Shown here one piece after another: positions 16,664-50,739 of a stretch of 64,000 nucleotides of DNA. The stretch lies in the sequence record PP658200.1; one strand, 5' to 3'. A model generated the notes under the pieces. It searched no databases, was not told the DNA's origin, and saw only the letters and a program-made list of their open reading frames with translations. Source of the stretch: Escherichia phage HY126. The position numbers and the translations under genes are program-made. Positions within the stretch are counted from its first letter, which is position 1, and every line of letters begins with the position of its first letter.

Positions 16664-19375
16664 TCAAAAATCGAACATATCGAACAGAGATGCTTTCTTC
16701 TCATAATCGAGTTTCGCTGCTGATGTGAATCCTTCAAGTGGTTTAATAAATGTCTTCTCAAGGAGAACAGTGTAGTCCATCCAGTGAAGTACATCGTCTT
16801 TAATTAAATCTGTGATTTCAGTACCAGAAGGCCATGCGATACATTTATCACCGAATGGGTTTCCTTCACGTAAAGGCAGAACATATACTTTTTCACCTTC
16901 TACAACTTGCGGTGCATCGATATTACCTTTGATAGCACGGTTATACGTCAGAATTCCACGAATATGGAACGGGCATTTGGGACCAGGGAATCCACCTACA
17001 TCATATTTAGCAATGTTATTCGCAGAAGATACCGACGCGATGCTAATATAATTCAATTGACGGAATTCTTTTTCAAACTCTTTAAAATATTCTTGTAATG
17101 ATTCTTCACCTTCTTGAAGCATACGACGAATACATTCTTTAAGAGCTTTCTGTACTGCTTTAGGAGTCGAAGATTTCTGAGTCTCTAGACCCATGATTTT
17201 GAGTTTAGGCTCAGCGTAACGAGTACCTTCCATATCCCACACGTTTAATGCATAACGTTTCTTACCAGTCCAGAATCCACCAATACCTTTAGAACCGAGT
17301 GGAGGCCCAGCGATAGCTTCTCGGTCCATGAACATTAAGTGTTGTTTATTGTTCATGTATTCACACATTTCACGGAAACCTCTATCAATAGCTGGTTCCA
17401 TACGTTCACGTGCAAACTTATCTAAGAAGTCTACCCAATGGTTGGTATCACGGAATTTAGATTCACCAACCTTATCGATAATTTTATCAGCAGATACGTA
17501 AATAGAGTCTGTATCACCATAAAGAACGAAAGCTTCACCTTCTGTACCACAAACTTCATTCAGATATTCATTAACTTTACGTTCAATCCACTGTAAAGCC
17601 ATTTGCCCGAATGTTGTGATTGCAGTAGCATTACGCAAATCATAATAACGGAACCAAACGTTGCCAAGTGCACCATAAAGCGAGTTGATGAGCAATTTAC
17701 GGTTAATTTGGGCAGTCATACCTGCAACTTCAGTACGTTGAGCTCTAAACAACATTTCATTAAGAGATTTAGCAGACAACTTTTTAATCTTTTCTTTAAT
17801 CTCATCGCTGAAGTCGAAACGATAATCAACATCTAATGGTTCGTCAACAGAAAGATTAGGATTATGCAATGCCTCTTTAATTATTTCACCATTACGTTGA
17901 GCTGCAAGCATGTAACCTTTATGTTCTTTACGTTGATTAAAGACCTTAGTGATTTCAGTTGGAACTACACCATCACGGTCTTTATAATACATCATGCCGT
18001 TAGGAGAACAACTGTACACATCAGAAGGACGTTCAGCAACAGCGTTAATATAATCATGCAATGGAGCTACTTTAAACGTTCCTGCTATTGTTTCTGGGCT
18101 AATATTCACTTGGCGAATAATACTTGGATACAGAGATGTGAGGTCGAAGCTCATCACATATTTGTATCGATTTGGAATAGGTTCCTTAACAAAAGCACCA
18201 GGATAAGGTTGAACCGGATGAGAACGACCTTGTGGAATCACCTTGTTCTGCTCTTTAAGGCTATTAAAAATAATAGCATCCCATGTTTTAATTGGGCTAA
18301 ACACGGATTGAATCTGTATCTTAGCATAATAACCCATGTCCAAACTCAAGTTGATGAACTGACGCTTAGCATCAATTTGCAATACACGATACACGTCGAT
18401 AATGTTATAAGAAATATATCGTTGGTGATTGCTTTCACGAAGCTTAGAAATAGGGCCGTCATATTTCAGTTTACCAACGTTCAATTCAAATTCTGAAATG
18501 TAATCCAGAGAATACGACGGTTGATTGGTAAAAGAGAATTTTTTGTAAAGGTCAATGTAATCAAGAACAGAGATACCGAACAGTGTAATGATTTCACGAG
18601 AACCATACATGTTTTCGATAACTTTAACACGAGTTTTACGATGTGGTGATAAACGTTTCGCAGTAGATTCGCCAAAAATATTCTTGATTCGGTTATACAC
18701 ATATGGAATATCAAATGACTCAACGTTCCATCCAGTCAAAATGACAGGAGTTTTCTGTTGCCAGAAGTTGAGATATTCCATCAACAATTCTTTTTCGTTA
18801 TCGAACGGCATATAAATGATTTTATCGATAATTTCGGATGGAACTTCATCACCACCTTGTTCTTGAAGCTTAGCTGCAATTTCGATAGACCATTCTTCCA
18901 CATTACCATATGGAGAATTCAATAGATCAAATACGTAGAACCTGTCGTCAATTGAGTCATAATGAGTGATAGCATCAATAGGATGTTTTGCTTGTGACGG
19001 CTCAGGGAACCCATCCGGAGATGTTACTTCGATGTCGAAGTTAGCCACACGAATTTTTGTATGGTCGTATTTGATTTCATAGTTATAAGTGTCAGACAAA
19101 TACGCCAATTTGAAATCGTCCATGCCAAGTGCTTCAAGTCCGATATCTTCCATGCGTTTAATCCATTGTGAGGCATCACGCATATTAGCGAACAACTTAC
19201 GAGTACACGGCTTACCGTAGATATCGAAATATTTCGTAGCCTGACTTTCCGGACAATGAGCAAACAGTGATGGTTTATATTCTACTTCACGAGTACGTTC
19301 ACGGCCGTTAGAATCGATGTAACGTTCAAAAATTGAATCACCAATCTGTTCAACCGTTAAGTAAAATTCTTTCAT
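16664..19375 (-). CDS. 43: DNA polymerase gp43 (family B)
   Basis: 903 aa; sequence recognised as RB69-type gp43 (MKEFYLTVEQIGDSIFERYIDSNGRERTREVEYKPSLFAHCPESQ…; exo motifs, YGDTDS). Confidence 0.97.
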   Translation of the reverse strand: MKEFYLTVEQIGDSIFERYIDSNGRERTREVEYKPSLFAHCPESQATKYFDIYGKPCTRKLFANMRDASQWIKRMEDIGLEALGMDDFKLAYLSDTYNYEIKYDHTKIRVANFDIEVTSPDGFPEPSQAKHPIDAITHYDSIDDRFYVFDLLNSPYGNVEEWSIEIAAKLQEQGGDEVPSEIIDKIIYMPFDNEKELLMEYLNFWQQKTPVILTGWNVESFDIPYVYNRIKNIFGESTAKRLSPHRKTRVKVIENMYGSREIITLFGISVLDYIDLYKKFSFTNQPSYSLDYISEFELNVGKLKYDGPISKLRESNHQRYISYNIIDVYRVLQIDAKRQFINLSLDMGYYAKIQIQSVFSPIKTWDAIIFNSLKEQNKVIPQGRSHPVQPYPGAFVKEPIPNRYKYVMSFDLTSLYPSIIRQVNISPETIAGTFKVAPLHDYINAVAERPSDVYSCSPNGMMYYKDRDGVVPTEITKVFNQRKEHKGYMLAAQRNGEIIKEALHNPNLSVDEPLDVDYRFDFSDEIKEKIKKLSAKSLNEMLFRAQRTEVAGMTAQINRKLLINSLYGALGNVWFRYYDLRNATAITTFGQMALQWIERKVNEYLNEVCGTEGEAFVLYGDTDSIYVSADKIIDKVGESKFRDTNHWVDFLDKFARERMEPAIDRGFREMCEYMNNKQHLMFMDREAIAGPPLGSKGIGGFWTGKKRYALNVWDMEGTRYAEPKLKIMGLETQKSSTPKAVQKALKECIRRMLQEGEESLQEYFKEFEKEFRQLNYISIASVSSANNIAKYDVGGFPGPKCPFHIRGILTYNRAIKGNIDAPQVVEGEKVYVLPLREGNPFGDKCIAWPSGTEITDLIKDDVLHWMDYTVLLEKTFIKPLEGFTSAAKLDYEKKASLFDMFDF

Positions 19376-19379
19376 TTAA

Positions 19380-19403
19380 TTTCCTTTAGACGAGTTATTG
19401 TCT
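19380..19403 (-). promoter_or_regulatory. gp43 translational operator (hairpin + SD)
   Basis: 5' UTR hairpin AGAC-AAUAACUC-GUCU (8-nt loop) immediately upstream of SD AAGGAAA; T4-family gp43 is a known translational autorepressor binding such a hairpin. Confidence 0.55.
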
Positions 19404-19430
19404 TTTGTTTGTTGATGAACTTATTATACT

Positions 19431-19450
19431 CCAAATGGGACCGAAGTCCC
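19431..19450 (-). promoter_or_regulatory. UUCG-tetraloop hairpin between regA and 43
   Basis: Minus strand AAUGGGAC-UUCG-GUCCCAUU immediately after regA stop, followed by GGAGTATAAT (-10-like); no U-tract. Confidence 0.5.
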
Positions 19451-19456
19451 ATTGCT

Positions 19457-19825
19457 TTAATTACCAATTGTATATTTTGCTTTCAAAGTCCAGTCATCTT
19501 TCTGTTTAAAAGAGATAACACGGAAGTTATTAGTCAGGCCAAACAGATCTTCACGAGCAGAGTCTTCAATAACAATCAATCCCCATTCTTCAAGCAACTG
19601 AGCAATCGAATCACGTCGCTGATAGTCTTCACCGTCAATATCAACCTGACGTCCGTCCATACGCAACATTTCTTTAAAGTGGACGATATAGTATTTACCT
19701 TGCTTTTGGAGGATATGACAAGACTGGTAAAGGACTTTATCCTTGTTATTAGCGATGCCCATACGGGTCAAAGTCTCTTTGACTTTCAGAAAATCTTCAG
19801 GGTTCTTCAATTTAATTTCAATCAT
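19457..19825 (-). CDS. regA: translational repressor RegA
   Basis: Strong match to T4 RegA as recalled (…PEDFLKVKETLTRMGIANNKDKVLYQSCHILQK…TNNFRVISFKQK…); start refined to MIEIK. Confidence 0.9.
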   Translation of the reverse strand: MIEIKLKNPEDFLKVKETLTRMGIANNKDKVLYQSCHILQKQGKYYIVHFKEMLRMDGRQVDIDGEDYQRRDSIAQLLEEWGLIVIEDSAREDLFGLTNNFRVISFKQKDDWTLKAKYTIGN

Positions 19826-20392: not shown

Positions 20393-21355
20393 TTATTTCC
20401 AAGTCAGTTCGCAGGTCAGTTGAAGAAGCATATACATAACATGTAATTCAATATTACTTGCTAATCCATGAAACTTATTATTTTCGCCTGCAATTTCGTA
20501 AAGCGAAATAATACTTTTACCAGGTGCAACTTGGTCATAACATTCTGAAACTAATTTATCGATGAACCATGAATAATCTGCAGCATATTTTGGAGCTAAT
20601 GCACGAAGTTGTTTGATATCTTTGTTCTTCATTGCTTCGATAACATCAGAGACTGTGCCACGGTCATTAGTTACGATAGACAGAATACCTGCGTCAAGAA
20701 CACCTTTAGACGAGTACTGGTCTAATTGGCCAATTGTACGACGAAAGTCTGGGAAGTTCTTTTTAACCAGAGCTGCAACAACTTTCATATCAGCGATTTC
20801 GATATTTTCGTTCTTACAGATTTCAACCATACGATGAATCATTTTCTTCATCATCGAGATTTTATCTTCTTCAGTCGGACGACCGAATTCGATAACTCGA
20901 CAACGGCTACGTAATGGTTCAATAATTCCATCAATATTGTTAGCAGTGATAATAATAGAGCAGTTACTAGAGAATTCTTCCATAAACGTACGAAGGTGAC
21001 GTTGTGATTCGGCGAGGCCACTACGGTCAAATTCATCAATAACAATAACTTTAGGCTTGCCTTCCATTGAGACTGAACGAGCGAATGCAGTTAACGGACC
21101 ACGCACAAAATCAATCTTACAATCAGAACCGTTGACGAACATCATTTCGGCATTGATATCATTACATAATGCTTTTGCTACGGTTGTTTTACCTGTACCA
21201 GGAGAAGGAGAGTGCAAAATAATATGAGGAAGTTTTCCTTTAGATACTAAAGACTTGAATGTTTCATGGTCATACGCAGGCAGAATACATTCGTCAATGG
21301 AAGAAGGACGATATTTCTGTTCTAGAATGTGTTCTTTGGAATTGATAGTAATCAT
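20393..21355 (-). CDS. 44: clamp-loader ATPase gp44 (RFC-like AAA+)
   Basis: 320 aa; Walker [11 protein letters not shown], Walker [12 protein letters not shown]-like motif. Confidence 0.95.
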
Positions 21356-21381
21356 GTAATTTTCCTCATTATCATTAAACT

Positions 21382-21397
21382 GGAGGATTTCTCCTCC
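21382..21397 (-). promoter_or_regulatory. intercistronic hairpin between genes 45 and 44
   Basis: GGAGGA-GAAA-UCCUCC (GNRA loop) on minus strand about 25 nt upstream of gene 44 SD; no U-tract. Confidence 0.4.
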
Positions 21398-21430
21398 ATA
21401 ATCGTACTACATTAAACGTAAAGCTTTGAC

Positions 21431-22117
21431 TTAGAAGTCGTGAGTAGAATCGGCTTCCATTGCAATAACATAACTTACTTGAGAGCTTTCAAACTTGGCT
21501 GCAACTTTATCACCAGCTCCCCACAACATTACTTTATAGTTACCCGGCTGGATTTTCATATTAGCCATATTGATTACGAAGTTAAAGTTGTTAGAACCAT
21601 CGTAATCGGTAAGAGTCAAAGAATACTTAGGACGAGTCAAGCCAGAATCTTCAACTTTATTATAGCCGTTGATAACAATTTTACCATCTTTATTTGTAAT
21701 AGCAATTGTATCAATCTGAAGACCACGTGAAACTCGAAGCAATTGTTGAAGGTCTTCAGCTTTAATTTCAGTAATCACAGAAGCCACTGGGAATTGAATT
21801 GGCTTATTAGGAAAAACAATGGTGCTCTTGTCAGCGGCAGGCCAATAAACCGTGGAACGTGTATCTGCAATTTTAATATTGCCATCGGTGTGCATCGAAA
21901 TTTCAGCATCATCAGACACTAGACTCAAAATGCTTAAGAAGCTATTCAAATCATAAAGTGCTACGTCAAAATCAATTTCATCAGAGATATTTGCTTCCGC
22001 ATAAGTGGTGCCATTAACTGCACGAGTCATAATAAATTTACCTTGACTCAGCAGAATGCCGGAGTTAATAGAGGCAAAGTTTTTCAGAATAGCGATAGTA
22101 TCTTTAGACAGTTTCAT
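21431..22117 (-). CDS. 45: sliding clamp gp45
   Basis: Near-identical to T4 gp45 as recalled (MKLSKDTIAILKNFASINSGI…); start refined to MKLSKDT. Confidence 0.95.
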   Translation of the reverse strand: MKLSKDTIAILKNFASINSGILLSQGKFIMTRAVNGTTYAEANISDEIDFDVALYDLNSFLSILSLVSDDAEISMHTDGNIKIADTRSTVYWPAADKSTIVFPNKPIQFPVASVITEIKAEDLQQLLRVSRGLQIDTIAITNKDGKIVINGYNKVEDSGLTRPKYSLTLTDYDGSNNFNFVINMANMKIQPGNYKVMLWGAGDKVAAKFESSQVSYVIAMEADSTHDF

Positions 22118-30996: not shown

Positions 30997-31467
30997 TTAA
31001 TCATGTTTCCACACCCCATCGGTATTTGACCAAAGTCGCTGATTATCTGATCCTCGCCACAGTTTTTTGGTCGGAAGATTTTTCTCATACTTCCCATCAA
31101 TAATAACATCAACATATTTAAGCATTTCTAGTTGTTTAATATCTTCAAACTTGTACCCTGTCCACAACCAAATGCTTTTATTGGGATAAAGATTTTTTAC
31201 TGTTTGAGCAATGCAATGAACAACATCTCTGTTATCAGGATAAAGAGGGTCTCCTCCAGTTATAGTTAATCCTTCTATATAATCATTATTCAAACATTCA
31301 ATTAATTGCTCTAGTGTTTCACCAGTGAATGGAACGCCATTTCTAGCATTCCACGTTGATTTATTATAACACCCTTCGCATTTATGCAAACAACCTGTAA
31401 CGAAAAGAACGACCCTGCATCCAGGGCCATTCACAAAATCACAGGGATAAAATCTATCATAATTCAT
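30997..31467 (-). CDS. nrdG: anaerobic ribonucleotide reductase activating protein NrdG (radical SAM)
   Basis: 156 aa; radical-SAM-like cysteine cluster (…GCLHKCEGCYN…) and ATGA-coupling to nrdD. Confidence 0.9.
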   Translation of the reverse strand: MNYDRFYPCDFVNGPGCRVVLFVTGCLHKCEGCYNKSTWNARNGVPFTGETLEQLIECLNNDYIEGLTITGGDPLYPDNRDVVHCIAQTVKNLYPNKSIWLWTGYKFEDIKQLEMLKYVDVIIDGKYEKNLPTKKLWRGSDNQRLWSNTDGVWKHD

Positions 31468-33281
31468 TGGTGTTTAACCCTATGCATGATTTCTTTATTT
31501 TTGCCGAGATTAAATCCGCGTTCGTTAGGATTTCCCAAATAACCACAAGTTCTTCTTATTGTGTTCATCTTTTTAGGGTCAGTTTCTCCACAAATAGAAC
31601 AAACAAATCCGTTTTCAGTAGGAGTCATTTCATGGGTACTTCCACATGTAAAACATTTATCTACTGGCATATTAACACCAAAATAATCTAAATGTTGTGC
31701 AGCATAATCCCACACGGCCTCAAGACCTTTTAGGTTATTTTTCATATCAGGAAGTTCAACATAAGAAATGTGACCGCCTGTCGCAATGAAATGATATGGG
31801 GCTTCGCGAGAAATCTTTTCAAACGGAGTAATATTTTCTTCTACTGAAACATGGAAACTATTAGTGTACCAGCCTTTATCAGTAACATCTTTTACACTTC
31901 CATATTTTTCGGTATCAAGTTTACAGAAGCGATAACAAAGGTTTTCAGCAGGAGTAGAATACAAACTAAAAGCAAAACCAGTTCTTTCAGTCCACTGCTT
32001 AAGACGAGCATTCATTTTAGTCAAAATTTCTTGCCCAATATCACGACCGACAAGAATATTCAATTCGTGAATACCAATGTATCCTAAGGACACTGAACTT
32101 CTGCCGTTTTTAAATAACTCAATTATATCGTCATCAGGTTTAAGACGAACCCCGAATGCACCTTCTTGGTAAAGAATAGGAGCAACAGTAGCTTTAACTC
32201 CTTTTAAGGAACTAATTCTACACATCAATGCTTCAAAACATAAATCCATTCGCTCATTGAATAATTCAGTAAATTTCTGTTCATTGAACTGTGTTCCAAT
32301 ATAAGAATCTAGCGCAATACGAGGAAGATTCAGTGTTACAACACCAAGATTATTACGTCCATCAAGAATTTCATTACCAGTCGAATCTTTCCATACGCTC
32401 AAGAAACTACGGCAGCCCATTGGAGAAACTGGAACTGAAGAACCGGTGATAGCTTTATTATTCTTAACTGAAATAATATCAGGATACATTCTTTTGCTTG
32501 CACATTCTAAAGCAAGCTGCTTAATATCATAATTCGGATCGTCTTTATAAAGATTAACACCTTCTTCAACGAACATAACAAGTTTAGGGAAAATAGGAGT
32601 TATCCCATCACGACCGAGACCTTTAATACGTTTTTTCAGAATTGCTTTCTGAATCATTCGTTCAGTCCAGTCAGTTCCCGTGCCAAATGTAATTGTTACA
32701 AAAGGCGTTTGCCCGTTTGAACTAAAGAGAGTATTTACTTCATACTCATAAGCTTGGAATGCATCGTATACGTCTTTTTCTGTTTTAGATTGAGCATAAT
32801 TCGGTGCATCGGTGATTTGCCATTTTTCTGCATCCTCGATATGTTTTGCATAGGTGCGTTTAACATAAGGAGAAAGTACTTTATCTACATTCGCAAAAGT
32901 CGTTCCACCATATTGATGAGAAGCAACTTGTGCAGTAATTTGCGCCATAATTGCAGTAGCAACACCAATTGATTTAGGTGTTTCGATCTGCGCATTACCA
33001 AGCTTAAACCCGTTCTCAAGCATTCCTTTTAAATCTACTAAACAGCAATTAGTAAATGGAAGAGCAGGGGAATAATCAATATCATGAAAATGGATAATTC
33101 CACTTTCATGCGCTTTCATAATAAAAGACGGGACCATATTTTTGGCAATGTGCTTAGACACAATACCAGCCATAAGGTCCCGTTGAGTTGGAAAAACACG
33201 AGAATCTTTATTAGCATTCTCGTTCAAAAGATCTTTATTAGTTTTACGAATTAATCCTTCAATTTCTTTTTCAATTTTCAT
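31464..33281 (-). CDS. nrdD: anaerobic ribonucleoside-triphosphate reductase NrdD
   Basis: 605 aa; C-terminal zinc ribbon CFTCG…CSICG and glycyl-radical motif RTCGYLG. Confidence 0.95.
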   Translation of the reverse strand: MKIEKEIEGLIRKTNKDLLNENANKDSRVFPTQRDLMAGIVSKHIAKNMVPSFIMKAHESGIIHFHDIDYSPALPFTNCCLVDLKGMLENGFKLGNAQIETPKSIGVATAIMAQITAQVASHQYGGTTFANVDKVLSPYVKRTYAKHIEDAEKWQITDAPNYAQSKTEKDVYDAFQAYEYEVNTLFSSNGQTPFVTITFGTGTDWTERMIQKAILKKRIKGLGRDGITPIFPKLVMFVEEGVNLYKDDPNYDIKQLALECASKRMYPDIISVKNNKAITGSSVPVSPMGCRSFLSVWKDSTGNEILDGRNNLGVVTLNLPRIALDSYIGTQFNEQKFTELFNERMDLCFEALMCRISSLKGVKATVAPILYQEGAFGVRLKPDDDIIELFKNGRSSVSLGYIGIHELNILVGRDIGQEILTKMNARLKQWTERTGFAFSLYSTPAENLCYRFCKLDTEKYGSVKDVTDKGWYTNSFHVSVEENITPFEKISREAPYHFIATGGHISYVELPDMKNNLKGLEAVWDYAAQHLDYFGVNMPVDKCFTCGSTHEMTPTENGFVCSICGETDPKKMNTIRRTCGYLGNPNERGFNLGKNKEIMHRVKHQ

Positions 33282-46553: not shown

Positions 46554-46863
46554 CTAGACGGTCCACCATAGAATTGCATGCTGCCTTATCTTTAGGTTCC
46601 GCCACCGAGCATTCTAATATTTGCCATTTTTTATAGTATCTTTTAATTAAGGTAGACGCCTTGAACCTACTAGACGCCCCATCTTTTTCTCCGTCTTTAT
46701 ACGCATATAACAATTTTTGTGAAAAATCTACTTTACACTCTTGACTTTTACCACAATAATCAGACGCCGTTCTGTTTGTATACTCCGTTACATCAGTATA
46801 TGTAGTATTAGCAAGAGCGCTAAATGAAACCAAGCCAACTATTAAAGCCAACATTTTGGTCAT
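46516..46863 (-). CDS. periplasmic protein with signal peptide (115 aa)
   Basis: Signal peptide MTKMLALIVGLVSFSALA, four Cys; T4 vs position but identity unverified. Confidence 0.55.
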   Translation of the reverse strand: MTKMLALIVGLVSFSALANTTYTDVTEYTNRTASDYCGKSQECKVDFSQKLLYAYKDGEKDGASSRFKASTLIKRYYKKWQILECSVAEPKDKAACNSMVDRLVDSYTRGLAASD

Positions 46864-47402
46864 TCTTTTATTTCCAGTAGTTTATTTGATTTAAGGTAAT
46901 TAGCCTTTTCTAGGACTTCAGAAGCATATTTACTTCCAGCACTTGTCTTCCATCCCGCGTTATATGAGGATATAGCTTTTCTTATATCCCCGTTATGTAT
47001 ATTTAACCAATAAGAAAATTCGATATAAGCCCATCTGGCTGAATTAGACCGCTTAGATAGCATTTTCTTAATTTGGGCATCAGTCATATTATAACCAAGC
47101 TGGTTAATTCTTGCCCTCATTGTTGGTAGATAATTTTGGAACATTCCATACGCATGGTGACCTTTCTTATCTTTAAGATTAATACCGGCAGATGATTCCT
47201 GCCATAGTATTGCGGCCATTATGTATCCAAGTCCTTTCTTATGCATATTTTCATGCGTTTTAAATTTTCCATCCTTAGAAAACTGTTCCCCAAACTGATA
47301 AGCATAATTCAAGTTATCGAGTTGGACATTACTAAAAGTATGCTCGGAGCTATGTGCTGATAATGAAAGAGCAAATAGACCAGCGAGTAGTGCTTTTCTC
47401 AT
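46860..47402 (-). CDS. soluble lytic transglycosylase-like protein (periplasmic)
   Basis: Signal peptide plus SLT motifs: LWQESSAG (catalytic E-S), YGMFQ, SSYNAGW. Confidence 0.7.
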   Translation of the reverse strand: MRKALLAGLFALSLSAHSSEHTFSNVQLDNLNYAYQFGEQFSKDGKFKTHENMHKKGLGYIMAAILWQESSAGINLKDKKGHHAYGMFQNYLPTMRARINQLGYNMTDAQIKKMLSKRSNSARWAYIEFSYWLNIHNGDIRKAISSYNAGWKTSAGSKYASEVLEKANYLKSNKLLEIKE

Positions 47403-47410
47403 GTTTACCT

Positions 47411-47869
47411 CTAGATTTTAATCACTGCTTTAGAAGCTTTTCCTGGTAGTCGTTTACTGTTAATAATAGCCATTCTGCATTGAAGAGTCTTCATTTTGAA
47501 TGCTGGATTTTCGCGACAAACTGTAAGTCCTAACCAAAGATTTCCATCAGTTATTTCTAAACGGCCTGGGCGATATTCGACACCTTCGACAAAATCTTCA
47601 TCAACATCTGGACGTGCTGGCATTGATAAAAATTCTGCAACTTCTTTAACATGATTTTTTACTTTACGAAATAATTCAAAAACGTAATTCTCATCTATTT
47701 CTCTCTGGATGGCACGATCTAAGAGATGTTGAGAATACTTGATATGAAAGCCTGGTAGTCCAAGAGACTTTGCAGCATCTTTTATACTGGCATTTATTTT
47801 GCGGAACTCCGTTTCAAAGATTCGACGGAGTTTATTACGGCGGATAAAAACGTCTGAATTGATAGTCAT
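47411..47869 (-). CDS. regB: endoribonuclease RegB
   Basis: 152 aa; good match to T4 RegB as recalled (MTIN…FIRRNKLRR…KYSQHLLDRAIQREID…RLPGKASKAVIK). Confidence 0.8.
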   Translation of the reverse strand: MTINSDVFIRRNKLRRIFETEFRKINASIKDAAKSLGLPGFHIKYSQHLLDRAIQREIDENYVFELFRKVKNHVKEVAEFLSMPARPDVDEDFVEGVEYRPGRLEITDGNLWLGLTVCRENPAFKMKTLQCRMAIINSKRLPGKASKAVIKI

Positions 47870-47896
47870 TTTGATTTCTCCTCTAGTTGACAGGTC

Positions 47897-47926
47897 TATA
47901 GTAACACAACTAGAGGAGAAGTAAAC
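47897..47926 (-). promoter_or_regulatory. early promoter with SD-sequestering inverted repeat (regB)
   Basis: GTTTAC-TTCTCCTCTAGTTG-…TACTAT…-CAACTAGAGGAGAA-ATCAAAATG; 14-nt halves are perfect complements. Confidence 0.55.
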
Positions 47927-48224
47927 TACTCTTTGAAAGGAATTAACTTTTTAACTGCTTTAGATACTTCGTCACGAACCTGGTGGAAGTTCTTGAGCTG
48001 TTCAAGGCGTTGTTCGTAATACGCAATCTCATCTTCTTCAAGACAATCGTCAGCGTCTTCTTTCAGATATGCCTTGTACTCATTAAAGAGGGCCCATAGG
48101 CGATTCTCAAAGTCATCAAGGCTTTGAATTTTCTTGTGCTTCGGAACAAGGCCAAAAGGATTGCTTTCAGTTATGCGTCGAGATGCTTCATAATGAGTTC
48201 CAAAGCCTGATAGGATTTGAGCCA
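47926..48224 (-). CDS. hypothetical protein (about 99 aa)
   Basis: Start refined to MAQILSGFG with GAGGAAAAA SD. Confidence 0.5.
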
Positions 48225-48480
48225 TTAGTATTTTTCCTCTGGTTGAAATACCGCACGACAAGCCCACATACTAGCTTCCTTTAGGCGTTCTTTAGCACAG
48301 TTCAATTGGGACAAAGCCGTCAGAGCTTCAGGAGTATTTGCTGATAATGCTTCTTCTGCCAGGGCGTCTAGAATAAGTCCTAAACGAACTTCGGCATCTT
48401 TAATAGCGTTCACTTTACCGATTTTATCATCGGTATGCGGCTTGTAGCCTTTGATGTCTTCAATCGACATAAGGAATTTC
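48225..48480 (-). CDS. hypothetical protein (about 85 aa)
   Basis: Start refined to [10 protein letters not shown] with GAGGAAA SD; overlaps upstream ORF by about 20 nt. Confidence 0.4.
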
Positions 48481-48684
48481 CTCATCTGTGGCAAGGTCAT
48501 ATTCGACCAATTGGATAGGCTCATTAATACCATATCCACGTACAGTGATATCAGTTGCCGGATAGTTTCCAGTAATATCACCCGTTCTAAATGCTTCAAT
48601 GAATGATTGCTCGCCTGAGCAACTAAACCAGGCGGCAAAACATTTTAAAACATCTTCAGACCCTTCTATAATCAATTTAGCCAT
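48460..48684 (-). CDS. hypothetical acidic protein (74 aa)
   Basis: Minus ORF starting at the stop of the GrcA-like gene. Confidence 0.4.
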   Translation of the reverse strand: MAKLIIEGSEDVLKCFAAWFSCSGEQSFIEAFRTGDITGNYPATDITVRGYGINEPIQLVEYDLATDEEIPYVD

Positions 48685-49046
48685 TATAGACTCTCAGTAA
48701 AGGTACGAGCGATAACGTCACGCTGCTGTTCCGGAGTCAGAGAGTTAAAGCGAACTGCATAACCGGATACACGGATGGTCAACTGCGGATATTTTTCTGG
48801 ATGCTTAACTGCATCTTCCAGAGTTTCACGACGCAGAACATTAACGTTCAGGTGTTGACCACCTTCAATTTTAACTTTAGGTTGATGTTCAATTTCAATT
48901 TCACGGGCATTCAAACCGTAGAAAATTTCCGGGTCTACAATAGCGTCTTCTTTAAAAGTCTTAGAGACAATAATCCGGGCTTGAGTACCGTCTTCAAAAT
49001 AAATAGTGCCTTTGTGTGTGCCTTCAAGAATTTGATATGCTTTCAT
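48684..49046 (-). CDS. autonomous glycyl-radical cofactor GrcA/YfiD-like protein
   Basis: 120 aa; C-terminal about 60 aa (…[60 protein letters not shown]) appears identical to E. coli GrcA as I recall it, including glycyl-radical motif RVSGY; N-terminus differs. Confidence 0.85.
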
Positions 49047-49052
49047 ATAACC

Positions 49053-49361
49053 TCAATTAGAAAATAAATTTATCCAAGTTTTTTCTTTAATCAAAAATGG
49101 GACGGAATTAAACGCCATTAAACTTTGAGTGATTAATCCCTTAAATGGCCCATCAATAAATTCCATTTTGAAATGTGGAATACTAGTCATCAGTCGTGCA
49201 TTAGGAGCAGTACAAAGAACCTGCTGCCCTGCGAACGGACCTTTAGTTAAACGATATCGTTTAGGTTTAAAATGGTAAATCTCGTAATTTTCTACAAGCG
49301 CCCTTTTATTGCATACTGGACTGTTATAACAATATTCAAAAACTTCAATAGTGGTCATCAT
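49053..49361 (-). CDS. hypothetical protein (102 aa)
   Basis: Minus ORF. Confidence 0.5.
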   Translation of the reverse strand: MMTTIEVFEYCYNSPVCNKRALVENYEIYHFKPKRYRLTKGPFAGQQVLCTAPNARLMTSIPHFKMEFIDGPFKGLITQSLMAFNSVPFLIKEKTWINLFSN

Positions 49362-49897
49362 TGCATTCCAATCACAAAAAATTGAGGACGAGCATTACCG
49401 CCGATGCAATATTTGCTTTTACAGCAGTACTGTACTGTTTTAATATGGACATTGTAAATCTTATCCATATCAGGAGCTTTAATAGGCTCGTCAATTATAT
49501 ACAGAATACGAGAAAGCGTTAATCCACGGAATTTAGAACCTTCATTGCCAATAAAACTACGAACAGAATCAGTAAATAAACGGAATCGAATATCGTCGCT
49601 AGAATAACGAGAAAATTCTTTTTCAATGTTGCCAGCAGAAATTTTAGCATAAGCTGAAGTATTAGAAAGAACAATAACCGTTCCACCATCATACAGCCAA
49701 TTAGCAGCAAAGTTAGTCACAGCAATTGATTTACCTGATTGTCGGCCGCCGTCTAAACGAAGTGTACAGTACTGCTTGAGTACGTCTTCAAATGGTGGGA
49801 CATATCCGTTCTTACAAATTTCTTCTACTCTAGCATCAGAATGGTGTGTAAAAGCATTCATCAGGGATAGATAAGGTCCAGTTAAAAATGTTCTCAT
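49358..49897 (-). CDS. hypothetical protein (about 179 aa)
   Basis: Start refined to MRTFLTG with AAGAGAAATAAT SD. Confidence 0.55.
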   Translation of the reverse strand: MRTFLTGPYLSLMNAFTHHSDARVEEICKNGYVPPFEDVLKQYCTLRLDGGRQSGKSIAVTNFAANWLYDGGTVIVLSNTSAYAKISAGNIEKEFSRYSSDDIRFRLFTDSVRSFIGNEGSKFRGLTLSRILYIIDEPIKAPDMDKIYNVHIKTVQYCCKSKYCIGGNARPQFFVIGMQ

Positions 49898-50069
49898 ATT
49901 ATTTCTCTTAAGGTTTGGGCCATTCCGTGGCACATGTTAGGTCCTTCGACTCGCTATGTAAACCCATTACCGCATTGCGCTCGACCTTATTACAGGTTGG
50001 AAAAGGTACATCACTCAGAGGACTCGACGTTCATGAGGAGAGGTTGCGTTTCCCTTTATTAGGCAAGAA

Positions 50070-50399
50070 TTATACTCTAGGCTTTTGAGCTTGTTTGGTA
50101 TTGGATTCCCATGCAGCTTTGGTAATTTTGTTAGCGGCATAACCAAAGGCATTAGATAGAACACCTTTAGAGTTGAATACATCCAATCCAATAAGTACAC
50201 CGGCTGCGTTAAATTTAGGAGCAAAGTATGCATTAGTTTTAGAAAGAGCTTTTTTCAATTCAGGGTCTTGAACCAAACCATCAAAAACGCCTTTACTATT
50301 TACTTTATATGTTACTTTGGGATTTTTACCTTCTTCGATAGCAGCTTTCTGTTCCGCAGATAATGTAACTTCAGTGATAAACTCTTGATACGTTTTCAT
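50070..50399 (-). CDS. internal head protein (IPII/IPIII-like)
   Basis: N-terminal capsid-targeting-sequence-like MKTYQEFITE as in T4 internal proteins. Confidence 0.7.
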   Translation of the reverse strand: MKTYQEFITEVTLSAEQKAAIEEGKNPKVTYKVNSKGVFDGLVQDPELKKALSKTNAYFAPKFNAAGVLIGLDVFNSKGVLSNAFGYAANKITKAAWESNTKQAQKPRV

Positions 50400-50424
50400 T
50401 TTGTTCCTATTGTTTTAATTTATG

Positions 50425-50739
50425 TTATTCTTTAGGGAAGTTTTTAGAGTATGCATCATAAAGTTTATTACCGATGCGACGGAAGACTTTAGCTGCAAAA
50501 CGGTTTTCAGGGTTTTTAATCATGATTTGCATCATGTAAGTTCCTGCATCCGAAAGAGCTTCTTCATAGTACCCATTAATTTCTTTAAGAGTCCTACGTT
50601 TACCACCAGGACCATCAACAGTAATTTTCCATTTACCTGTAGAAGTGCGGCTAGGTGGCTCAACTTGTTCAATCCAAATATAACCACCTTCAACGCGTTG
50701 GTTGGCGGATTCTGCAATAAATTCTTTATACGTTTTCAT
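50425..50739 (-). CDS. internal head protein (IP-like)
   Basis: N-terminal MKTYKEFIAE capsid targeting sequence. Confidence 0.7.
   Translation of the reverse strand: MKTYKEFIAESANQRVEGGYIWIEQVEPPSRTSTGKWKITVDGPGGKRRTLKEINGYYEEALSDAGTYMMQIMIKNPENRFAAKVFRRIGNKLYDAYSKNFPKE

Follow-up and report, generated by a model that had tools for sequence, protein, structure and literature searches.

Why does a lytic coliphage encode a protein that ends in a radical-bearing segment identical to that of a host protein, where did this segment come from, and which enzyme would it serve? The questions arise at an ORF in a 64,000-nucleotide stretch of Escherichia phage HY126 (PP658200.1; hereafter the window, to which all unattributed positions refer), which the initial annotation took for a homolog of the glycyl-radical cofactor GrcA with a host-like C-terminus and linked to the anaerobic ribonucleotide reductase system of the phage. 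The features on which the analysis turns are collected in Table 1.

Table 1. Features of the vs.6 locus and of the separate nrdD/nrdG genes in the window
Feature	Position	Strand	Basis or remark
vs.6 / Y06I / phage grcA, autonomous glycyl radical cofactor	48684..49046, stop codon included	-	ORF, 120 aa
N-terminal half, codons 1-60, an old, phage-lineage-specific GrcA N-region	48867..49046	-	hhalign, GC3
C-terminal half, codons 61-120, glycyl radical domain, putative host-derived tract	48687..48866	-	60/60 aa and 173/180 nt identical to E. coli grcA
Gly95 codon, RVSGYAV loop, predicted radical site	48762..48764	-	alignments to 6owr and 1h16; codon table
Shine-Dalgarno-like GAGG	49051..49054	-	read from sequence; 4 nt 5' of the vs.6 ATG
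TAATG stop/start overlap of vs.6 with downstream vs.5 (48460-48684)	48682..48686	-	
nrdD, class III RNR, 605 aa	31464..33281	-	ORF; separate from the vs.6 element
nrdG, NrdD activase, 156 aa	30997..31467	-	ORF; syntenic KP869101 gene annotated as activating enzyme; separate from vs.6

Identity of the locus and its spread among phages

The 2.1 kb flanking the ORF are 97-99% identical to genomes of Mosigvirus (T4-like Straboviridae of E. coli), several records of which label the ORF "autonomous glycyl radical cofactor" or grcA. The window shares with the T4 RefSeq the gene order regB, vs.3, vs.4, vs.5, vs.6, vs.7, vs.8, denV, in which vs.6 (Y06I) is NP_049730, "autonomous glycyl radical cofactor GrcA", and the ORF of the window is the ortholog of this gene in Mosigvirus. 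It is an exact reading frame with an ATG start, and the GAGG that precedes it overlaps the TGA stop of the upstream gene vs.7. At the opposite end, the TAATG overlap suggests translational coupling between vs.6 and vs.5. A scan of positions 47800-50600 revealed no dedicated promoter or terminator above the counts obtained with shuffled sequences.

Profile and structure searches bear out the assignment to GrcA made in the initial annotation. The protein matches the Pfam Gly_radical family (PF01228) with an E-value of 2e-18 and 67 bits (cut-off 22), its residues 21-120 match residues 27-127 of PDB 6owr, the solved structure of E. coli GrcA, with an E-value of 2e-42, and the match to PHROG 1209 spans the entire 120 residues. 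The best NCBIfam match is the GrcA equivalog TIGR04365, and the score of 159.1 bits falls 11 bits short of the curated cut-off of 170 because the N-terminal half is divergent. In the alignments, Gly95 of the phage protein corresponds to Gly102 of E. coli GrcA and to Gly734 of PflB, the residue that PMC8683613 describes as both the radical and the cleavage site of PFL. The product is a stand-alone protein of ~14 kDa, with its own Shine-Dalgarno sequence and ATG and no large glycyl radical enzyme around the radical domain, and these sequence features identify it as an autonomous glycyl-radical protein of the GrcA type.

A description of this protein, including its family and biochemical activity, dates from 2001, and annotation of the gene has become routine. 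E. coli YfiD and T4 Y06I were characterised by Knappe and co-workers as "spare part" proteins of ~14 kDa (Wagner et al., 2001, pmid 11444864, as cited in PMC8683613); according to the same account, the PFL activase puts a glycyl radical on either protein, and both then bind O2-cleaved PFL and restore its activity. Andorfer et al. (2021; PMC8683613) describe YfiD and Y06I as still the sole validated spare parts. In the comparison by Nolan et al. (2006), a Gly_radical match of vs.6 was found in every T4-like genome compared. The window protein closely resembles T4 Y06I, with the same length of 120 residues and 94% amino acid identity, six of the seven differences falling in the N-terminal half and one in the C-terminal half. 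Both genes lie between vs.5 and vs.7 in the regB-denV cluster, and both are mosaics of a phage-type N-terminal half and a C-terminal half matching that of E. coli.

By tblastn, a homolog was found in 1,588 phage records, comprising T4-like phages (Tequatro-, Mosig-, Jiaoda-, Slopek-, Pseudoteven-, Krisch-, Biquarta- and Schizotequatrovirus) and T5-like phages (Demerecviridae). The homologs from T5-like phages (e.g. FFH1 ORF55) and from T4-like phages of Aeromonas and Vibrio do not differ from the window protein in size or architecture; they share with it a related N-terminal half beginning MKAYQ and are ~52-58% identical to it overall in amino acid sequence, that of Vibrio phage PVA23 reaching 78% across the C-terminal 73 residues. 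Their C-terminal halves show 71-77% nucleotide identity to the sampled bacterial grcA genes and contain no recent host-identical tract. Among T4-like and T5-like phages the gene has a long history, and its N-terminal half is deeply diverged. In FFH1 (T5-like, 301-669) and Aeromonas phage 31.2 (292-660), whose C-terminal halves have only ~75% nucleotide identity to any sampled bacterial grcA, a tRNA-Met gene lies no more than ~300 nt upstream of the homolog.

Several gene names in the related record KP869101 are at odds with this gene order. Its homologs of vs.1, vs.7 and vs.8 (18961-19503, 21154-21462 and 21459-21998; window counterparts 46860-47402, 49053-49361 and 49358-49933) are all named "endoribonuclease RegB", and its nrdG carries the name pflA; both names appear to have been carried over in error during annotation. 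In the window, the homolog of vs.1 (minus strand) starts with the signal-peptide-like sequence MRKALLAGLFALSLSAHS.

Origin of the two halves of vs.6

E. coli GrcA/YfiD (P68066; PDB 6owr) is built like the phage protein, with an N-terminal region of ~60 residues followed by the radical domain, and the two N-terminal halves are collinear homologs, that of the phage being ~27% identical to its counterpart, seven residues shorter and devoid of the conserved NSFWLLD segment. Unlike the E. coli gene, the phage gene sits in a polycistronic cluster of a lytic phage. The homology emerged from hhalign comparison of N-terminal profiles built from nine phage and fifteen bacterial GrcA sequences (probability 95.7%, E 8.7e-9, 62 columns, 27% identity, collinear), contrary to the initial view of this half as unrelated to GrcA. 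The product of codons 1-60 alone still aligns collinearly with TIGR04365, residues 18-60 against model positions 23-66, at a marginal E-value of 0.057. With a GC3 of 0.27, the N-terminal half is divergent from bacterial GrcA yet conserved among phages. The collinear homology rules out that a radical domain was fused to foreign sequence, and only one element of the chimeric gene that had been proposed survives: the host-derived radical domain is upheld by the nucleotide comparisons below, whereas the supposedly foreign N-terminal half belongs to an old GrcA homolog. We therefore read the whole protein as an old, full-length GrcA homolog with a C-terminal half that was overwritten later.

Residues E61-L120 (EGGQHLNV...RVSGYAVRF...TESL) are identical to E. 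coli GrcA at all 60 positions, the RVSGYAV glycyl loop included, when compared codon by codon with grcA of strain 1190 (NZ_CP023386). Both the identity of the last ~60 residues, which the initial annotation had stated, and the sequence comparison with E. coli grcA that it had proposed as a check thus came out in its favour. At the DNA level, 7 of 183 nt differ, every difference being synonymous. On the 5' side of codon 61, identity to E. coli grcA drops sharply, and the match is confined to nt 133-363 of the phage gene. The left boundary at codon 60/61 is common to the window phage, T2, T4, Shfl2 and OES_C-2, and the similarity stops at the stop codon, with the last three or four codons varying from phage to phage. 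Identity to the E. coli C-terminal half is at least 95% in 638 phage records and between 90 and 95% in only 8, and does not exceed 90% in the remainder, a bimodal distribution.

Measured against Escherichia grcA, the C-terminal half has a nucleotide identity of 95-96% in the window phage, 96.7% in T2 and 97.2% in T4 (with a 138-nt exact match), as compared to 92.8% in Citrobacter grcA, 85% in Salmonella grcA and 84-87% in grcA of Klebsiella, Enterobacter and Yersinia. The phage segment is therefore nearer to Escherichia grcA than is that of any other sampled genus, and nests within the Escherichia lineage. Over codons 61-116, the window differs from E. coli by four synonymous changes, T4 by a single non-synonymous change and T2 by none. 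The T4 change, R73H (CGT to CAT), lies inside the host-like tract of the biochemically tested copy (NC_000866, 5558-5920); residue 73 is arginine in T2, the window phage and E. coli. Among 5,426 E. coli genomes, none exceeded 96.2% identity to the window segment and hence none was a closer donor for its four core synonymous variants, which would accordingly be phage-lineage changes or derive from an unsampled donor. The direction of transfer favoured by the sequences is from host to phage, because, relative to grcA of Citrobacter and Salmonella, both halves of E. coli grcA behave as expected for a normal vertical ortholog.

We conclude that codons 61-120 are best explained as a tract that an old phage gene received recently by conversion from Escherichia, a feature that is new here at the DNA level, and that the C-terminal half was in all likelihood overwritten through homologous recombination with Escherichia grcA in the Tequatrovirus/Mosigvirus lineage. 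We found nothing relevant on grcA recombination between host and phage in the searchable literature. What the present analysis adds to the known biochemistry is DNA-level evidence that half of the gene is a near-exact, recent Escherichia copy within a much older phage homolog, providing a clean natural case of homologous gene conversion from host to phage among the T-even phages.

The same DNA identity could in principle reflect constraint at the protein, codon or mRNA level on an anciently acquired gene that underwent no recent recombination, an explanation that we consider improbable. The C-terminal half of the protein is indeed very strongly constrained in all bacteria sampled, and its codon usage, scored against 50 window ORFs, lies at the 43rd percentile and is no outlier, since T4-like phages and highly expressed E. 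coli genes share many preferred codons; Leu-CTG alone stands out (4/6, compared to 11% genome-wide). However, RB16 encodes a C-terminal half with 100% amino acid identity to E. coli at just 82.8% nucleotide identity, and the Klebsiella phage KP1LMA (Slopekvirus) behaves alike, the two together retaining 97-100% of the residues at only ~81-83% of the nucleotides, so that selection on the protein alone is insufficient to account for DNA identity. Enterobacterial orthologs with an identical protein likewise still deviate by 7-15% from E. coli in DNA, and constraint would also have to explain the 172 consecutive identical nucleotides in T2 and the higher third-position identity between the window and T2 in the C-terminal half (0.92) than in the N-terminal half (0.80).

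Contamination with host DNA, which the initial annotation had raised as one way in which its reading might fail, or a chimeric assembly, either of which a segment 96% identical to a host gene brings to mind, is ruled out by the in-frame junctions, by the phage genes vs.5 and vs.7 on either side, by the same boundaries and mosaic in T2, T4, Shfl2, OES_C-2 and hundreds of independently sequenced phages, and by the absence from the 5,426 E. coli genomes of any more than 96.2% identical to the segment, leaving it with practically no probability.

Two features of the 3' end deserve description. Three of the seven synonymous differences of the window lie in the last three codons (48684-48695; GAG AGT CTA, compared to GAA AGC CTG in E. 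coli), directly 5' of the overlapping vs.5 ATG, where they give rise to a GAGAG motif; the conversion tract may end here, or the changes may aid translation initiation of vs.5. The OES_C-2 gene (Tequatrovirus, 227-583) is 357 nt long owing to a two-codon deletion in the N-terminal half, and its C-terminal half matches E. coli grcA at 99.5% identity all the way to the stop codon, the tract extending further 3' than in T2, T4 and the window phage.

Predicted target of the spare part

We consider it very probable that the gene encodes a GrcA/YfiD-type cofactor, as the Mosigvirus ortholog of T4 vs.6, which repairs host PFL and whose C-terminal half was recently overwritten from Escherichia grcA. 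The phage protein is identical at 49 of 64 positions (77%) to the C-terminal glycyl radical domain of PflB (residues 696-759; PDB 1h16), the portion that the spare part replaces, and the two share an identical 22-residue core. As a stand-alone protein of 14 kDa without the PFL barrel or the catalytic cysteines, it is nearer to GrcA than to PflB. Since its radical domain is that of host GrcA, matches PflB at these 49 positions and lacks similarity to NrdD, the target is predicted to be host PFL, as in the T4 biochemistry.

In the mechanism that we propose, the protein would be expressed from the long, densely packed leftward cluster that runs from regB through the vs genes to denV, as judged from synteny. 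Host PflA should be able to act on Gly95 and install the radical there, because the C-terminal 60 residues copy the radical domain of host GrcA exactly; for T4 Y06I this activation has been demonstrated biochemically. After O2 cleavage of host PFL at Gly734, the phage protein would dock in place of the lost C-terminal fragment and bring activity back, as T4 Y06I does in vitro. For the window phage protein, we infer both activation and PFL rescue by analogy. The initial annotation had suggested that the protein might hijack the host activase; use of that enzyme is indeed described for T4 Y06I in PMC8683613, in the form of normal activation by host PFL-AE rather than a hijacking. The benefit could be that conversion of pyruvate to acetyl-CoA and formate goes on in a dying host without the host's own gene expression, and that fermentative ATP and formate, the latter a reductant for NrdD, might be sustained during infection under microaerobic or fluctuating-oxygen conditions. 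Lytic coliphages would thereby carry a repair part for an enzyme of host central metabolism, which is of relevance to replication in the oxygen-fluctuating gut.

A protein of this kind might also manipulate rather than repair, by competing with GrcA or PFL for PflA or by binding PFL unproductively, with the effect of redirecting pyruvate flux. In YfiD, according to PMC8683613, the disordered residues 1-60 matter for the binding and activation of cPFL but not for catalysis, and it is this controlling half that is divergent in phages (27% identity) yet well conserved among them; the binding, kinetics or regulation of PFL rescue may on this account differ from those of YfiD. That the phage protein acts as an antagonist is nonetheless highly improbable, given that the 94% identical T4 Y06I restored PFL activity in vitro, as reported in PMC8683613, and given the perfect conservation of the catalytically relevant half, which speaks for a functional radical domain.

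The reading offered in the initial annotation, in which the vs.6 protein serves as a spare part for phage NrdD by replacing its O2-cleaved C-terminal fragment, possibly after activation by NrdG, is scarcely credible in light of the sequence of the putative target. The phage does encode NrdD and NrdG, as had been noted for positions 30997-33281, and the closest phage matches of NrdD, 98-99% identical, are annotated as class III or anaerobic ribonucleotide reductase; the adjacency to vs.6 claimed along with them does not exist, as 15.4 kb and ~45 genes intervene. An R-x-x-G-Y loop is present in both proteins, spare parts for glycyl radical enzymes beyond PFL are speculated about in PMC8683613, and Nolan et al. 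(2006) guessed at a role of vs.6 in nucleotide metabolism, solely from the Pfam match. BLASTP of the vs.6 protein against window NrdD, however, yielded no significant alignment, the best segment (E 2.8, NrdD 403-446) lying off the glycyl loop. In NrdD, the RRTCGYLG loop is immediately preceded by CFTCGS...CSICGE (CxxC...CxxC), a Cys4 zinc site that is missing from the vs.6 protein, which contains no cysteine at all, and the radical domain of the latter is the one that host GrcA and, at 77% identity, host PflB possess.

Repair of host PFL leaves room for an indirect connection between vs.6 and NrdD. The characterised class III RNRs use formate as their reductant, as stated in PMC4493059, and T5-like phages, e.g. 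OQ680479, carry both a vs.6 homolog and nrdD. It is plausible that PFL, by making formate, would supply the reductant for NrdD.

Single or recurrent conversion

The mosaic could stem from a single event or from many. We tentatively propose, while stopping short of favouring it, that the radical half of vs.6 is kept matched to the host by ongoing, recurrent conversion from host grcA and that, together with the link from PFL through formate to NrdD, vs.6 represents a host-templated auxiliary metabolic gene for anaerobic phage DNA synthesis. The old phage copy would provide the homology for recombination, and every conversion would refit the part to host PFL and the PFL activase. Consistent with recurrence, the tail boundaries of the tract differ between T4, T2, Shfl2/OES_C-2 and the window phage, the distances between phages are incongruent for the N- and C-terminal halves, and an LLDAVEH variant occurs in Klebsiella phages of two genera. 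Among the bacteria sampled, LLDAVEH is found in grcA of Klebsiella, Raoultella and Salmonella, among others. The incongruence can be seen in pKp20, which is as distant from the window phage as RB16 in the C-terminal half and much closer than RB16 in the N-terminal half.

For the Klebsiella phages, no near-identical donor was present among 80 sampled species, a set that does not include K. pneumoniae, and their C-terminal halves reach at most ~88-89% nucleotide identity to the sampled grcA genes of Klebsiella and relatives. The test for a Klebsiella tract placed 17 phage records at 90-95%. Two bacterial records in these comparisons are unusual: on a contig labelled Vagococcus sp. WN89Y there is a grcA typical of enterobacteria, 91% identical to E. 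coli in amino acid sequence and probably a contamination or mislabelling, and in Klebsiella sp. WOUb02 grcA is located on a 275-kb "plasmid".
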